From: Enterobacteria phage KhF3
Sequence record: KT184315.1
Length of the DNA stretch: 64,000 nucleotides
Strand: one strand, 5' to 3'
Shown here: positions 3,923 to 9,170 of the stretch, piece after piece
Layout: every line of letters begins with the position of its first letter
Numbering within the stretch: the stretch's first letter is position 1
Translations under genes and position numbers: made by a program
Notes under the pieces: generated by a model
Told to the model about the DNA's origin: nothing
Database searches by the model: none
What the model saw: the letters and a program-made list of their open reading frames with translations, nothing else

Positions 3923-3998
3923 TGGAGAATCCGAAGGGACTCGAACCCTTATAAACCTGTTTTGCAGACAGGAACATAGCCATTTCTGTCACGGATTC
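3923..3998 (-). tRNA. tRNA-Cys (anticodon GCA)
   Basis: Manual cloverleaf on reverse complement: 7-bp acceptor, T-loop, anticodon loop CTGCAAA, CCA encoded. Confidence 0.7.
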
Positions 3999-4002
3999 AA
4001 AT

Positions 4003-4095
4003 TGGAGGAAGATACCAGACTTGAACTGGTACACCGATTTCTCAGCTACTGGCAGTTTAGCAAACTGCTCCCTTACCTTTTAGGGTTAATCTTCC
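4003..4095 (-). tRNA. tRNA-Ser (anticodon GCT), class II
   Basis: Acceptor GGAAGAT/ATCTTCC, anticodon stem GCAGT/ACTGC loop TTGCTAA, long variable arm. Confidence 0.7.
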
Positions 4096-4096
4096 A

Positions 4097-4831
4097 TTAT
4101 TTCTGTAATGCGTTCTTCATTTCTGGTGTTGCAATAGTGTCAATCACACCAGTTTTACAAGCATCATCAAACCAGTCTGGTAAGATACCTGCTAAGAACC
4201 CATTGATATTCGTTTTAAGGTACTCTGCAATAAGAGCAGCTTCTTCTTCAATCATCTGCACAACTTCATCTGCATAAGCTGTAATCTTCGAAATACCTTC
4301 ATTAATCTTACTAACAGCTTGGTTAGCTAAATCAGAAATAGTATCAAGACCTTTGTCAATAGCATCTTGTAAGTCACTTAATACATCATTAACGACATCT
4401 AGTGCACTGTTAATTGTGTCAATAGCTTTTTGACCATATTCTGTAGCAACGCCCATAATACCACTAAACGGTGTACAGCCAACTTGTTCCCCTGCTGCAC
4501 CCATAACATTGGAATACCCCTTTGCTACCTGCATACGTGATGAAAACTCATCAATAGACTTTTGACCATAGTCTGTTAAGGTCTTAGTAGTCGCTGTAGT
4601 GCTTGTAAGGCTTGTTGTAAAGCTGTTTAGAAGGACTGTTGTAAGTCCAGCAGCAACAAGTTTCTCCTTCATTGTAGGGTCTGTTACAGAGCTAATAGAA
4701 CTTACAAGTGATGTAGAGGCAGCTACGGTTCCACCGAGAACTGCTGCACCAGTAATAAGGGGATTAGAAAACCCTCTACCGGTTTTTAAGAGATTAAAAA
4801 TCTCCTTACCTTGTTCTGTCATCTCTTTCAT
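4097..4831 (-). CDS. hypothetical Ser/Thr-rich protein
   Basis: Track ORF 4097..4894 uses GTG inside tRNA-Phe; in-frame ATG at 4829-4831 with AAAGGTG RBS avoids the overlap. Confidence 0.5.
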   Translation of the reverse strand: MKEMTEQGKEIFNLLKTGRGFSNPLITGAAVLGGTVAASTSLVSSISSVTDPTMKEKLVAAGLTTVLLNSFTTSLTSTTATTKTLTDYGQKSIDEFSSRMQVAKGYSNVMGAAGEQVGCTPFSGIMGVATEYGQKAIDTINSALDVVNDVLSDLQDAIDKGLDTISDLANQAVSKINEGISKITAYADEVVQMIEEEAALIAEYLKTNINGFLAGILPDWFDDACKTGVIDTIATPEMKNALQK

Positions 4832-4847
4832 TAAGCACCTTTGTAAT

Positions 4848-4924
4848 TGGTAGTCCAGTGGGATTTGAACCCTCTTCTCATGTTTTTCAGACACGCGCTT
4901 TAACCATATAAGCTACTTGGACTA
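4848..4924 (-). tRNA. tRNA-Phe (anticodon GAA)
   Basis: Acceptor TAGTCCA/TGGACTA, anticodon loop CTGAAAA; D-arm imperfect. Confidence 0.6.
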
Positions 4925-4929
4925 TAAAT

Positions 4930-5005
4930 TGGGGTGACCTACGGGATTTGAACCCGTATAGACCATGTTCACAGCATGGGTCATTACCATTTATGATAAG
5001 GCCAC
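4930..5005 (-). tRNA. tRNA-His (anticodon GTG)
   Basis: Anticodon stem CCATG/CATGG loop CTGTGAA; CCA encoded. Confidence 0.7.
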
Positions 5006-5036
5006 ATTTAAGGACTCTCGTAAGAATCCTTAGAAG

Positions 5037-5112
5037 TGGCAGCGGCATAAGGATTTGAACCTTAATAGGACAGCTTCAGAGACTGTTGCATTGCCAGTTA
5101 TGCTATACCGCT
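5037..5112 (-). tRNA. tRNA-Gln (anticodon CTG)
   Basis: Full cloverleaf, anticodon loop CTCTGAA. Confidence 0.7.
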
Positions 5113-5117
5113 AAATT

Positions 5118-5196
5118 TGGTACTCCATATCGGATTCGAACCGATACATAACACAGATTTTAAGTCTGGCCTCTCTGCCAATTGGAGTAATGGAGC
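5118..5196 (-). tRNA. tRNA with anticodon TAA (Leu by anticodon), short variable arm
   Basis: Acceptor GCTCCAT/ATGGAGT, T-arm ATCGG-TTCGAAT-CCGAT, anticodon loop CTTAAAA, discriminator A, 76 nt without CCA. Confidence 0.55.
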
Positions 5197-5198
5197 AT

Positions 5199-5274
5199 TG
5201 GCGGGGGATGTTGGAATTGAACCAACTTCTTCGATTTCAAAGACCGAGGTTTTAACCTTGTAAACTAATCCCCT
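5199..5274 (-). tRNA. tRNA-Gln (anticodon TTG)
   Basis: Anticodon stem TCGGT/ATCGA loop CTTTGAA; position 1-72 mismatch. Confidence 0.7.
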
Positions 5275-5282
5275 TTAAATCT

Positions 5283-5840
5283 TTACTTTCTCAGTGGATG
5301 AATAAAGAATGCCAACATAACTCTTTCCCTTGAGAATGCTCTTTCTTCTGGGACAACACTTTTTAGTTTCCATCCAATATAAATTCTCCAGTAAAACTGT
5401 TTACCAAAGACTTTAATTGATGGGATAAAGGCGAATAATCCCCAAGCATTACTGTTCCACATTAGGAGATAACCAGTCTGATTATCTTCAGGGTCAGAAC
5501 TTACGTTGATATTACCTTTCCACTTAGTAACATCTTTTACATCTCTTCCTAATACATGGTAAGAGAAGTTATAAGCTTTGTTTCTCCAGAGCCATCCGAC
5601 TCTTTGCATGTAGACGCCTAGTTTACCAATCCATCTAATATTAGCCCATCTTTTAACGTGACCTTCATCACCATCAATTGGGTTGTCATATGTCTCCATC
5701 CATCTGAACCCGAAAGGTAAGTGTCCTTTCTTCTCACTGTAGAATGGAACTACAAAAGGTGCTAAGATAACTGCTAAGATTGCTGCAAATGGTTCTAACA
5801 AAGCTAAGAAAATCCATGAAGCATACTTTAAGTATCTCAT
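5283..5840 (-). CDS. hypothetical membrane protein
   Basis: 185-aa ORF with hydrophobic N-terminus, between tRNA blocks. Confidence 0.5.
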   Translation of the reverse strand: MRYLKYASWIFLALLEPFAAILAVILAPFVVPFYSEKKGHLPFGFRWMETYDNPIDGDEGHVKRWANIRWIGKLGVYMQRVGWLWRNKAYNFSYHVLGRDVKDVTKWKGNINVSSDPEDNQTGYLLMWNSNAWGLFAFIPSIKVFGKQFYWRIYIGWKLKSVVPEERAFSRERVMLAFFIHPLRK

Positions 5841-6079
5841 TGTCTAATCCTCGTAAGGAGGTAAATGTTATTATTCGTTTCTAAACCTTCTGGTAAAACT
5901 ATCTCAAAAATAACACTCTTCAGATGTCTACCACCAAAACAATCACGTATAAATCTTTCTACTCTAGCGGGGTCACATAAGTATCCCACTTTTAAGAAAA
6001 TGTGGTGTTCAACACCAATGACCCTGACAAACTCAATACTCTCACAGTTTTCATGTTCAACTACTGTTAATGTTTGCAT
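5837..6079 (-). CDS. hypothetical protein
   Basis: 80-aa ORF, stop overlaps downstream start. Confidence 0.4.
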   Translation of the reverse strand: MQTLTVVEHENCESIEFVRVIGVEHHIFLKVGYLCDPARVERFIRDCFGGRHLKSVIFEIVLPEGLETNNNIYLLTRIRQ

Positions 6080-6096
6080 AGTATCACCTTTTTATC

Positions 6097-6172
6097 TGGC
6101 GCAGGATAAGGGATTCGAACCCCTATTAACAGCTTCGTAGACTGTTGCTCTTTCCATTTGAACTAATCCTGC
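6097..6172 (-). tRNA. tRNA-Arg (anticodon ACG)
   Basis: Anticodon stem ACAGT/GCTGT loop CTACGAA. Confidence 0.7.
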
Positions 6173-6177
6173 AAAAT

Positions 6178-8192: not shown

Positions 8193-8194
8193 TA

Positions 8195-8326
8195 CCAGAC
8201 CGTTGTTTATCATCTTAAGTGCTACCATTACACCAACTCGACATCTGCCGAGTGAAGGAATCGAACCTTCGCCTTTTCTTTACCGGAGAAATAGATTGTT
8301 TAAGTTTTGCTGTAAACGGTCTTCTG
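8195..8326 (-). ncRNA. candidate structured small RNA with tRNA-like module
   Basis: Closing stem CCAGACCG / CGGTCTTCTG; inside, T-arm GAAGG-TTCGATT-CCTTC followed by an ACTCGGC/GTCGAGT hairpin and a D-arm-like GTGTAATGGTAGCAC; order is not that of a canonical tRNA. Confidence 0.35.
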
Positions 8327-8339
8327 TAAAATTGTTGAG

Positions 8340-8418
8340 CCAGACCAAGTTTTATAAATTTTTTCAAAATTAAATTGGCTTGAAAATATCATACGTACTT
8401 GCTGAATTTGGTCTTCTG
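8340..8418 (-). other. inverted-repeat-bounded spacer element
   Basis: CCAGACCAAG ... TTGCTGAATTTGGTCTTCTG. Confidence 0.3.
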
Positions 8419-8505
8419 CTCCTTTAAAGAATACTCGTAAGAACTCTTTAAGGGAGGGGCTAAAATAGCCCTCTCAAACATCATTTTGAAATACTTATTA
8501 TAATT

Positions 8506-8583
8506 TGGCGGTTACGAAGGGATTTGAACCCTCATCATCTCCCGTGACAGGGGAGTATTTTAACCAGATTAAACTACATAACC
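8506..8583 (-). tRNA. tRNA-Asp (anticodon GTC)
   Basis: Anticodon stem CTCCC/GGGAG loop CTGTCAC, CCA encoded. Confidence 0.7.
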
Positions 8584-8589
8584 TTTATT

Positions 8590-8677
8590 TGGTGTGCCGT
8601 GTAGGAGTCGAACCTACCGAGTCTCAATGACAAGGGATTTACAGTCCCCACCGCTACCATCTACGGGATAACGACAC
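8590..8677 (-). tRNA. tRNA-Tyr (anticodon GTA), class II
   Basis: Anticodon loop CTGTAAA, long variable arm, T-stem GTAGG/CCTAC. Confidence 0.65.
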
Positions 8678-8686
8678 ATTTAAATT

Positions 8687-8763
8687 TGGCGGTTAGTCAG
8701 GGATTCGAACCCTGTGCCATTCGCTTAACAGGCGACCGCACATACCTTATGTGCTTCCTAACC
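8687..8763 (-). tRNA. tRNA-Asn (anticodon GTT)
   Basis: Anticodon loop CTGTTAA, T-arm CAGGG-TTCGAAT-CCCTG. Confidence 0.65.
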
Positions 8764-8774
8764 TTAATACATTG

Positions 8775-8834
8775 CCAGACCGTGTTTTTTCTTTTATCCG
8801 CAAAAAGTATTTTGTTGCTGAATACGGTCTTCTG
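8775..8834 (-). other. inverted-repeat-bounded spacer element
   Basis: CCAGACCG ... TTGCTGAATACGGTCTTCTG. Confidence 0.3.
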
Positions 8835-8840
8835 CAAAAT

Positions 8841-8917
8841 TGGAGGCGGGTGCAGGAGTCGAACCTGCCGATACCATGCTAATGAGACATGTGAGACGCC
8901 CTTTCTCTATACCCGCA
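8841..8917 (-). tRNA. tRNA with anticodon CAT (Met, initiator or Ile2 unresolved)
   Basis: Anticodon stem CATGT/GCATG loop CTCATTA with pyrimidine at position 37; position 1-72 mismatch. Confidence 0.5.
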
Positions 8918-8928
8918 ATTCTTAATGA

Positions 8929-9001
8929 CCAGACCAAATCTATTCTTTGTCCGATTTACCTTCAGATGAATAAGATTAAGTTTGCTGTAATTGGTCTTCT
9001 G
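8929..9001 (-). other. inverted-repeat-bounded spacer element
   Basis: CCAGACCAAA ... TTGCTGTAATTGGTCTTCTG. Confidence 0.3.
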
Positions 9002-9008
9002 TCAAAAC

Positions 9009-9086
9009 TGGCGTTCCAGAAGGGATTTGAACCCTCAGATATCCACTTTGAAAGAGTGGTGACTTTACCATTTTGTCTACTGGAAC
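9009..9086 (-). tRNA. tRNA-Glu (anticodon TTC)
   Basis: Anticodon stem CCACT/AGTGG loop CTTTCAA. Confidence 0.7.
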
Positions 9087-9093
9087 ATTAATT

Positions 9094-9170
9094 TGGTCTC
9101 TGTTGGAGGACTTGAACCTCCGGCCTTACCGCCCCAAACGGAACGCTCTACCAAGCTGAGCTAAACAGAG
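9094..9170 (-). tRNA. tRNA-Pro (anticodon TGG)
   Basis: Anticodon loop TTTGGGG, T-arm GGAGG-TTCAAGT-CCTCC. Confidence 0.65.

Follow-up and report, generated by a model that had tools for sequence, protein, structure and literature searches.

The tRNA array of Enterobacteria phage KhF3 (sequence record KT184315.1), a Felixounavirus, contains in one of its spacers a structured RNA of ~160 nucleotides (nt) that joins two modules derived from transfer-messenger RNA (tmRNA): a 5' arm antisense to the host tmRNA gene ssrA, and a message-like part with a resume codon, a short tag reading frame and two pseudoknots. Our analysis covered a 64-kb stretch of this genome, hereafter the window, and all coordinates refer to it unless another source is named. 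We regard it as nearly certain that this tmRNA-derived RNA is real and functional, and its family is restricted to enterobacterial phages and prophages. Judging from sequence comparison, we lean towards the view that it acts on host tmRNA; that the phage tag would take the place of the host tag is a tentative proposal, which we consider rather unlikely. The literature searched, a search that was not exhaustive, describes no comparable antisense or tmRNA-like RNA from a phage and contains none of six of the family's tag strings, which suggests that this tmRNA-derived antisense RNA was previously undescribed as far as that literature extends. No Rfam family reaches its gathering threshold on the RNA, and identity with IsrK or another curated prophage small RNA (sRNA) was rejected, as none gave an Rfam match.

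Domain composition and structural conservation of the tmRNA-derived RNA

From its predicted 5' end, the RNA consists of the antisense arm, an A-rich linker with the resume context, the tag frame, a hairpin resembling helix 5 of tmRNA, and two H-type pseudoknots designated a and b (Table 1). The arm opens on a conserved seed, AGUUUUCG, and the resume region includes a TAAATGCAAA block that is invariant in 32 representatives; ARAGORN, run at a lowered threshold, itself tags the linker region as 'resume consensus sequence'. The AUA at positions -6 to -4 is shared with E. coli ssrA (AUAGUC-GCA in E. coli versus AUAAAU-GCA in the phage), and the bases upstream of the resume codon are known to matter for frame selection by tmRNA.

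For the structural comparison, 133 loci with 105 unique sequences were collected, and a covariance model (CM) was built from 17 ungapped members. In the resulting alignment, 94.0% of the cells are paired, as against 21-43% in slid controls, and 22 of the 26 pairs show changes on both sides; none of 500 shuffles reached the observed values. The outer stem of the helix-5-like hairpin, which presents the stop codon in its apical loop, is 98% paired and passes from CUGG/CCAG to CUGA/UCAG to CGAG/CUCG. The two pseudoknot-specific stems are 84-97% paired, again with compensatory changes, and this pairing is unbiased because these stems are not part of the CM. Both stems of pseudoknot a vary in a compensatory manner, its pseudoknot stem being the one outside the model, and the loop motif of pseudoknot b, UGAUUAAUAA, is conserved.

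The tag frame is under coding-like constraint. We recovered 39 distinct tag open reading frames (ORFs) encoding 29 peptides, such as ANDDLMMVAA, ANDDVVLMAA, ANEEMYLAVA and ANDEQFLAVA. Codons 2, 3 and 10 are invariant in their first two positions and codon 9 in its first position, and it is the third positions of codons 2, 3, 9 and 10 that vary most, with an entropy of up to 1.5 bits. Internal stops are absent from frame 0 and occur in 36 of the 39 ORFs in frame +1 and in 29 of the 39 in frame +2, and every member terminates with TAA, TAG or TGA at one fixed place. An overlapping frame that starts at AUG (MQTTMFFWQ*) was rejected as the coding unit: its length is not conserved, and the phage-plasmid SSU5 has no AUG.

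Phyletic distribution of the RNA family

When positions 7400-7830 were used as a BLAST query, the segment 7529-7653 matched, at 72-87% identity, phages that are otherwise unrelated to Felix O1, including Klebsiella siphovirus BUCT610, Vibrio phage pYD38-A and Escherichia phage Bas81, with further matches in UTK0001 (Schitoviridae), P46FS4 (Ackermannviridae), SSU5 and Erwinia Kolesnikvirus. Homologs confirmed with the CM come from at least eight unrelated enterobacterial phage or prophage lineages, among them two kinds of ~47-kb siphoviruses and lambdoid prophages; in one lambdoid example, the element is flanked by the gene for antiterminator Q on one side and that for the holin on the other. 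The CM search returned 94 matches in 97 sources, with the window RNA (7528-7658) scoring 106 bits (E 1.5e-27), and did not match E. coli ssrA. Pattern scans of IMG/VR located the element in at least 120 contigs.

Among complete E. coli genomes, 320 of 5,426 (about 6%) carry the element, at 92 chromosomal and 233 plasmid places, none of them ssrA. Host ssrA was dismissed as the source of the BLAST matches, given that only these 320 genomes match, and at prophage or plasmid places. Across bacterial representatives sampled as one genome per species, CM-confirmed copies were recovered from Pseudocitrobacter, Pantoea, Rouxiella, Erwinia, Rosenbergiella, Providencia and Escherichia; outside the Enterobacterales, the CM gave a single truncated match, in a Bacillota contig from a metagenome-assembled genome. 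Same-strand tRNAs lie near 73 of the 133 loci and opposite-strand tRNAs near none, the nearest downstream tRNA being most often Asn(gtt) or Arg(tct). One IMG/VR contig (L153) holds two copies, at 1771-1900 and 1281-1410 on the minus strand, which are ~490 nt apart and score 90.8 and 34 bits.

The 5' arm is antisense to host ssrA

The arm is antisense to nt ~68-107 of host ssrA; for the 28-nt arm at 7687-7660, the match is to nt ~75-106, with the A-rich linker, resume codon and tag codons 1-6. The targeted region comprises the single-stranded message of tmRNA together with the 3' strand of its first pseudoknot (PK1). BLAST against E. coli K-12 ssrA produced minus-strand matches in the arm only. 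An exact complement of 10-12 nt to ssrA 97-108 is present (10 nt, 97-106, in the window arm), and the siphovirus, lambdoid and N4-like types further match 13 of 14 positions of ssrA 68-81; the arm at locus L039, CCAGUUUUCGUCACGUUAGCGACUUUGCGGACUUUUUA, may be compared with the reverse complement of ssrA 68-108, CGUAGUUUUCGUCGUUUGCGACUAUUUUUUGCGGCUUUUUA. Its UGCGAC complements the GUC-GCA of the host and not the AAU-GCA of the phage's own message.

The same preference holds across the family. Over 72 unique members, the mean arm score was 38.8 against the reverse complement of ssrA 50-112, 17.6 against the RNA's own message and 14.6 against shuffled host sequence. The host score surpassed all 100 shuffles in 68 of the 72 members (median z 8.4) and the own-message score in 71, on which ground we rejected pairing with the RNA's own tag as the role of the arm. 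Individual lineages retain differing segments of the complement (GCGCACUAUUUUUU in L205, GCGAUUAUUUU in L054, GCGACUGUUU in SSU5 and GCGGCUGUUUUUA in L047), a pattern that points to selection for base pairing to the RNA of the host and not to the own message, in which the corresponding codons vary freely. A reading of the 5' motif as a relic of the tmRNA D-loop region (GGUUUCGAC) was also set aside, as it accounts for 8 of 11 positions, against ~32 of 36 for the antisense match.

Predicted duplex energies with ssrA point in the same direction: -41 to -47 kcal/mol for the long-arm types, compared with -24 to -33 for shuffles; -27 to -29 kcal/mol for the Felix and Erwinia types, compared with about -20; and -27.3 kcal/mol for the window arm, compared with -20.5±2.6 for its shuffles. 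Cofolding of the whole RNA with ssrA nt 45-140 yields a gain of -19 to -28 kcal/mol, with the arm pairing to nt ~66-106. In the window RNA folded by itself, the arm pairs with the resume region, which is free in the predicted complex with ssrA.

Relation to tmRNA

The RNA shares with tmRNA an A-rich AUA context, a GCA resume codon, a tag of ~10 codons that begins AN(D/E) and ends on hydrophobic or Ala residues, a stop codon in a helix-5-like position, and H-type pseudoknots. It departs from tmRNA in having neither the tRNA-like domain nor helix 2 and in having two pseudoknots rather than four, and its 5' region holds an antisense copy of host ssrA in place of the tRNA-like domain and PK1. Viewed against the hallmarks of tmRNA, it displays the resume context and a tag frame ending at the helix-5-like stop; its two downstream H-type pseudoknots are backed by covariation, an upstream equivalent of PK1 was not established, and the tRNA-like domain, with its G3:U70 acceptor stem, T arm and 3' CCA, is absent.

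Dedicated searches agree with this assignment. No tmRNA was called in the window by ARAGORN with default settings or by Rfam at gathering score. ARAGORN makes a tmRNA call here only at -ps80, by joining halves of neighboring tRNAs, and such a lowered-threshold call probably explains the 'ssrA' remarks in the Felix O1 and Moogle genome announcements. The sub-threshold Rfam scores (RF00023, 15.7 bits; RF04321, 29.2 bits; cut-off 47 for both) are owed entirely to the resume and tag sequence. Neither the 129 family loci, searched with several kb of flank, nor the whole window contains the acceptor-piece motif. Across the regular-expression searches for an acceptor piece and for a CGAAAAC partner beside a T loop, and Rfam searches relaxed to E up to 1 or 10, a tRNA-like domain turned up in no more than four sequences, all of them genuine permuted phage tmRNAs. 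In several lineages, moreover, promoters abut the conserved 5' seed, which leaves no room for an acceptor strand and thus for G3:U70.

These four permuted two-piece tmRNAs lie on IMG/VR viral contigs (RNA-sense strand: L114 2513-2910, L017 6652-7039, L085 1396-1783 and L093 1670-2037). They encode the tags ANDESAYLMAA (L114), ANESVYRLAA and ANDAFFGETRLAA, and their resume region, AAUAAAU-GCA-AAC-GA, is the same as that of the family. Such permuted phage tmRNAs may be the evolutionary source of the family without a tRNA-like domain.

Two groups of phage-borne RNAs invite comparison. AgvB and AsxR of enterohemorrhagic E. coli prophages are anti-sRNAs that base-pair with host small RNAs. They resemble the present RNA as short phage or prophage transcripts with a 5'-proximal seed against an abundant host RNA, and the lambdoid copy of our family likewise sits in the late region downstream of Q; the differences are that the target here would be tmRNA rather than an Hfq-dependent sRNA, and that a second, message-like module is present. 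In papers on the tmRNA database, the phage tmRNAs listed all have a tRNA-like domain. The tmRNA of mycobacteriophage DS6A consists of that domain only, and a similar molecule of this type strongly inhibits host tmRNA (PMC4131195). The DS6A form is thus also a phage-borne partial tmRNA and at the same time the mirror image of the family described here, which has the message side only, plus the antisense arm.

The tRNA array and its conservation

Within the window, ARAGORN identifies 26 tRNA genes, and Rfam RF00005 recovers 24 of them at gathering score, with no other Rfam family reaching that score anywhere in the 64 kb; both counts lie above the roughly 20 calls that the sequence-only reading, a preliminary interpretation of this DNA, had set as a floor. 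That reading had counted 27 genes, one more than ARAGORN supports, and had correctly placed all of them on the minus strand with the same outer limits, 3923 and 9170. It had also estimated that about 19 amino acids are covered, and 19 specificities were indeed counted, with Trp alone lacking a gene. Its list of isoacceptor duplicates (Gln, Arg, Ser, Lys and Met) is accurate as far as it goes; it omitted the three Leu genes (taa, caa and tag). If expressed, the array would supply a near-complete tRNA set during infection.

The two genes missed by RF00005 are tRNA-Tyr (8590-8677) and an atypical tRNA-Met(cat) (8841-8917), the latter of which folds as a cloverleaf. This tRNA-Met has no Rfam tRNA match even at E up to 1, and its anticodon loop, CUCAUUA, carries U at position 37; an elongator Met, an Ile2-type and a non-canonical tRNA are candidate identities.

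The twenty-seventh gene of the sequence-only reading was probably a Trp-like sequence at 7196-7270 on the minus strand, the sole further candidate. It falls below threshold in Rfam (23 bits against a cut-off of 29-47) and is not called by ARAGORN. Its predicted fold has a 9-nt anticodon loop holding CCA (CCUCCAAAA) and six extra nt before the D stem, and it is 71% similar to tRNA-Arg(tct) (repeat family D7). The sequence is kept across Felixounavirus, with a TATAAT 3 nt upstream, and may represent either a pseudogene or a tRNA-like RNA that does not decode.

Comparison with related genomes establishes that the array is not new: it is the one usual in Felix O1-like phages and has been annotated before. 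Megablast with 3500-9400 matched 405 phage records, 223 of which cover at least 80% of the query, the best being Enterobacteria phage XTG1 at 99.7% identity. The array is 96-99.7% identical across more than 200 Felixounavirus records, and over the megablast query more than 200 Felix O1-like phages of Escherichia, Salmonella, Shigella and Citrobacter are 90-99% identical. The annotation of phage Pr103Blw lists the identical 26 genes in identical order, so that the size of the array, which the sequence-only reading had singled out, is no distinction. Its general description as a tRNA array of a large virulent phage facing a consensus-type promoter holds, as does the interest it attached to the spacers, in which we found the tmRNA-derived RNA and Y-RNA-like stem-loops, with a Ro60-like gene directly upstream.

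The tRNA cluster of T4, also a virulent phage operon, encodes the processed stable RNAs C and D as well, and so resembles the present array as a tRNA operon with additional small RNAs; the comparison is one of description, with no sequence relation expected. For Felix O1 and wV8, the published count is 22-23 tRNAs (PMC2674420). Gene content, order, strand and flanks (the Ro60-like gene upstream and a terminase downstream) are alike throughout the Felix O1/wV8-type cluster of the Ounavirinae; the Felix O1 array differs from that of the window in its HNH endonuclease insertions and in lacking tRNA-Arg(tct), and in nothing essential.

Table 1. Features of the tRNA array region of phage KhF3, with the tmRNA-derived RNA and its parts given before the surrounding elements
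Feature	Coordinates	Strand	Basis or remark
tmRNA-derived RNA, ~160 nt	7687-7530	-	predicted 5' end ~7687, 7 nt after the -10
5' arm, AGUUUUCGUUGCGUAGCGUCUAUUUUGC	7687-7660	-	antisense to host ssrA
A-rich linker and resume context, AAAUUUAAAAUAAAU, ending ...AAAAUAAAU	7659-7645	-	AUA at -6..-4
Tag frame GCA AAC GAC AAU GUU UUU CUG GCA GUA GCU UGA = ANDNVFLAVA*	7644-7612	-	
Helix-5-like hairpin, stop codon in apical loop	7626-7597	-	covariation
Pseudoknot a, H-type: stem GAGG/CCUC, loop CCAA pairs with downstream UUGG	7596-7564	-	covariation
Pseudoknot b, H-type: GUAC pairs with GUAU in loop of hairpin GCCCAC/GUGGGC	7563-7530	-	covariation
Promoter-like P1, TTGACA-17-TAATAT	9317-9289	-	repeat family D6
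Promoter-like P2, TTGACA-18-TAAAGT, extended -10 TG	9226-9197	-	repeat family D6
Promoter-like P3, TTGACA-17-TATAGT, 11/12 matches	7722-7694	-	repeat family D6
Ro60-like gene, TROVE-type alpha-solenoid and vWA (DxSxS)	9336-10751	-	fold comparison
U1, Y-RNA-like stem-loop, between tRNA-Glu and tRNA-Met	9004-8926	-	
U2, Y-RNA-like stem-loop, between tRNA-Met and tRNA-Asn	8837-8772	-	
U3, Y-RNA-like stem-loop	8421-8337	-	
U4, circularly permuted tRNA-like domain within a basal stem like that of U1-U3	8329-8192	-	
tRNA-Cys, Ser(gct)	3923-4095	-	ARAGORN
ORF, DUF7217	4097-4894	-	Pfam
tRNA-Phe, His, Gln(ctg), Leu(taa), Gln(ttg)	4848-5274	-	ARAGORN
ORF, DUF7338, hydrophobic N-terminus	5283-5840	-	Pfam
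ORF, 80 aa, PHROG 14202, function unknown	5837-6079	-	PHROG
tRNA-Arg(acg), Leu(caa), Val, Thr, Gly, Ala, Lys(ctt), Leu(tag)	6097-6833	-	ARAGORN
Spacer, ~30-bp stem, abuts 5' end of tRNA-Leu(tag)	6834-7086	-	minimum free energy (MFE) z -3.3
tRNA-Ser(tga)	7087-7176	-	ARAGORN
tRNA-Arg(tct)	7415-7491	-	ARAGORN
16-bp hairpin between tmRNA-derived RNA and tRNA-Arg(tct)	7495-7529	-	MFE
tRNA-Ile, Met	7738-7891	-	ARAGORN
tRNA-Lys(ttt)	7970-8045	-	ARAGORN
Spacer, 22-bp closing stem, abuts 5' end of tRNA-Lys(ttt)	8046-8191	-	MFE -46.4 kcal/mol, z -5.5
tRNA-Asp, Tyr, Asn	8506-8763	-	ARAGORN
tRNA-Met	8841-8917	-	ARAGORN
tRNA-Glu, Pro	9009-9170	-	ARAGORN

Promoters, processing stems and interrupting ORFs

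The sequence-only reading proposed that the array is driven from one promoter, TTGACA-17-TAATAT, facing it at 9289-9317. This site (P1) is present as described, and we would amend the single-promoter picture: P1 and P2 stand in tandem upstream of tRNA-Pro (P2 by 27 nt), and a stronger site, P3, lies inside the array directly after tRNA-Ile, where it heads the 246-nt spacer with the tmRNA-derived RNA. The array would thus be transcribed from two tandem predicted promoters of the sigma-70 type and one internal promoter. P1, P2 and P3 are the three best sites; they are paralogous, each combining an A/T-rich UP-like stretch with TTGACA, and are intergenic and on the array strand. As a class, promoter-like matches show no enrichment, with a count of 19 where shuffles predict 16.6. 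All three sites are conserved in Felixounavirus and Mooglevirus, P1 being kept in Felix O1, Mordin, Sf14 and Michonne, and promoters of the form TTGACA...TAGATT or TAATCT abut the homologous element in the siphoviruses and the Erwinia phage. Felix O1 has a 91-nt insertion (25632-25722 of its genome) between P3 and the 5' end of the RNA, which is itself 99% identical. Just past the stop codon of the Ro60-like gene, a 12-bp hairpin (9325-9294, minus strand; AAAGGGUAUU...AAUACCCUUU) contains the -35 of P1; it is not a classical terminator, as it has no U tract, and it may couple termination and promoter use.

Three spacers are predicted to end in long stems of 16-30 bp (7495-7529, 8046-8191 and 6834-7086) that abut the 5' ends of tRNA-Arg, tRNA-Lys and tRNA-Leu, respectively, and whose 3' strands are related (...CUUUAAAGAUAAU, ...CUACAAAGAUAAUUUAAU); that of the 7495-7529 hairpin recurs at 8051-8064 before tRNA-Lys (repeat family D13). 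As far as can be judged from the predicted folds, all three are probably processing sites of the RNase III type. Searches with the spacers 8046-8505, 6834-7086 and 7177-7414 found no homologs outside the Ounavirinae.

The three ORFs that the sequence-only reading saw interrupting the array are also there (Table 1). The longest reading of the DUF7217 ORF, from a GTG at 4894, overlaps tRNA-Phe (4848-4894) by 47 nt; its true start is probably downstream of tRNA-Phe, because the Pfam match begins at residue 29.

A Ro60-like gene and Y-RNA-like stem-loops

The gene directly upstream of the array, on the same strand, encodes a protein that Pfam assigns to DUF2828 and DUF7788 and PHROG to family 850 ('RNA-binding protein'). 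Pfam TROVE (PF05731) does not match it even at E up to 10, and sequence and profile searches of the PDB gave no match either; it was fold comparison alone that succeeded. An AlphaFold2 model of the protein (pLDDT 88.9) retrieved, with Foldseek, ten top hits that are all Ro60 or TROVE chains, including the Ro60 of a Thermus phage (E 2e-8 to 2e-6; TM score 0.48-0.65 over about 520 columns). The residues D279, S281 and S283 are invariant. A 2024 preprint had described the Bas63 ortholog, gp130, as Ro60-like and as countering the ppl defence system, and had guessed that some "tRNAs" might be Y RNAs.

Four paralogous stem-loops, U1-U4, are scattered through the array spacers, U1 lying 332 nt downstream of the Ro60-like gene. 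They share the 5' motif ACAGAAGACC..UU.CAGCAA and its 3' partner GGUCUGG, and their common base, as given by MFE folding, comprises 4 bp, a 3-nt AGA bulge, 7 bp and a 1-nt G bulge. This basal stem is paired in all 264 cells examined (24 units from six phages of two genera), with compensatory pair types at 5 of its 11 positions, and the AGA/G internal loop is invariant.

A tRNA-like domain is found in U4 and is missing from U1-U3. Its elements run in the order anticodon/variable-like hairpin, T arm (GAAGGUUCGAUUCCUUC), acceptor-like hairpin (ACUCGGC-AGAU-GUCGAGU) and D arm (GUGUAAUGGUAGCAC), and its anticodon and T part scores 22 bits against Rfam tRNA. The acceptor hairpin covaries fully, appearing as ACCCUUC-GCCAAACA-GAAGGGU in Mordin and Michonne and as ACACG/CGUGU in Sf14; in the two former phages, both members of Mooglevirus, its 3' strand is followed by G-CCA, and the anticodon loop of the Sf14 unit, CUUAUAA, is canonical. 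The same order, variable-T-acceptor-D, within a long bulged stem is described for bacterial YrlA-type Y RNAs (PMC4201824). U4 resembles them in its long bulged terminal stem, in this order and in the adjacent Ro60 homolog, and differs in a 5' motif, CAGAAGACC, that is only loosely like GNCGAAN0-1G; the system as a whole differs from YrlA/Ro60 in having four paralogs scattered among tRNA genes and a DUF2828/DUF7788 protein rather than a TROVE protein. By analogy, U1-U4 are likely to be RNA partners of the Ro60-like protein.

Ro60-like genes also occur in or beside same-strand tRNA arrays of two unrelated large phages, Vibrio phage phi-pp2 (L315, 223-2590) and a 148-kb metagenomic phage with 26 tRNA calls (L316, 3634-11190). 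In the latter, the gene is followed by a gene-free gap of 700 nt, and some ARAGORN calls are odd (a 2-base anticodon, a 'Pyl' cta).

Proposed mechanism and competing explanations

With moderate confidence, we consider the best explanation to be that the tRNA array serves as an RNA island aimed at host RNA surveillance, with the tmRNA-derived RNA directed at host tmRNA. Having no tRNA-like domain, this RNA cannot be charged or enter the ribosome alone. As we picture it, the arm would base-pair with host tmRNA over a stretch that runs from PK1, on its 3' side, as far as tag codon 6. Such pairing would mask the host resume codon and the first six tag codons and would bring the corresponding phage elements, resume codon and tag frame, close to SmpB and the tRNA-like domain of the host. 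Since the phage message would then lie beside PK1 with the same polarity as the host message, rescued ribosomes may resume on the phage frame. Trans-translation would accordingly be either blocked or redirected, in the latter case with AN(D/E)xxxL(A/M)(V/A)A appended instead of ANDENYALAA; plain inhibition is the more conservative of the two versions.

Several observations weigh against this explanation. Cofolding of the siphovirus type shows no unmasking of the resume codon; the whole arms of SSU5, L054, L047 and L092 score near shuffle levels, an 8-10-nt seed remaining; and E. coli K-12 ssrA served as a proxy for all hosts. An inverted duplication in an ancestor may account for part of the arm, and disruption of PK1 could simply inactivate tmRNA. 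We know of no other case in which tmRNA is provided with a message in trans by way of an antisense tether. The promoters and RNA ends are predictions. As for the Y-RNA-like units, their single-unit folding z-scores are weak (-1.4 to -1.9), and the Rfam Y RNA and YrlA models gave no match at E up to 10 over 8170-8345 or at E up to 1 over 3000-11500.

The plainest competing account, that of an ordinary tRNA array with spacers that have no function of their own, made up of leaders and trailers for processing and of tRNA or ssrA remnants in decay, fits the identity of the array with the known Felixounavirus one, the pseudo-tRNA-like remnants at 7196-7270 and in the U4 core, the resemblance of the long stems at tRNA 5' ends to RNase III-type processing sites, and the conservation of most spacers only within the Ounavirinae. 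We nevertheless judge it improbable, because it leaves unexplained why the 7687-7530 segment is common to unrelated phage families (72-87%) with unrelated flanks, often under its own promoter, and why 60 of the 133 loci show no tRNA in the flanks examined; nor are the 22 of 26 covarying pairs, the coding-type constraint on the tag, or the basal stems of U1-U4, paired in 264 of 264 cells with compensatory changes, what functionless debris would retain.

The remaining alternatives accept a functional RNA and differ on what it does. It might be purely an antisense inhibitor or sponge of host tmRNA, possibly leading to RNase III cleavage, with the tag frame an untranslated relic or decoy. Such a role would suit the arm, the best supported functional feature, as well as the absent tRNA-like domain and the precedent of inhibition by a partial tmRNA in the DS6A form with a tRNA-like domain only (PMC4131195, PMC11915505); a relic, however, would be expected to lose its open frame, fixed stop and third-position bias, which persist over 39 ORFs, along with the AUA resume context, the helix-5-like stop and two covarying pseudoknots. 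This account strikes us as credible but on the whole unlikely. Alternatively, the RNA might be the coding piece of a genuine two-piece tmRNA whose acceptor piece is encoded elsewhere or is too divergent to detect. The permuted tmRNAs of L114, L017/L085 and L093, with the shared AAUAAAU-GCA-AAC-GA and similar tags, speak for this, as do scores of 26-29 bits with the Rfam permuted-tmRNA models (cut-off 47) and the 'ssrA' reported from ARAGORN in the Felix O1 and Moogle announcements. Yet the acceptor-piece motif is missing from the 129 loci and the window, the promoter abuts the 5' seed so that neither a 5' acceptor strand nor G3:U70 can be accommodated, the ARAGORN call arises only at -ps80 through halves of neighboring tRNAs, and the Rfam alignment is that of the resume and tag sequence alone, which together make a two-piece tmRNA very improbable.

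Implications

If an RNA island aimed at host RNA surveillance is the correct explanation, and if the phage frame is used, the tmRNA-derived RNA would be the first example of tmRNA receiving its message in trans, as well as the first of a virus taking over the tag added in ribosome rescue, and the fate of tagged proteins would be altered during infection. The family would then constitute a new, widespread class of phage and prophage RNAs targeting ribosome rescue. It raises the question of whether a tmRNA message can be supplied in trans and bears on how the resume codon is selected, and its 29 natural alternative tags could be used to probe the recognition of degradation tags by ClpXP and SspB. 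U1-U4, for their part, give specific candidate partner RNAs for the phage Ro60-like protein. Taken as a whole, the region resembles a compact kit against host RNA-level defences, one that combines replacement tRNAs with a Ro/Y RNA system for quality control and a means of controlling trans-translation.

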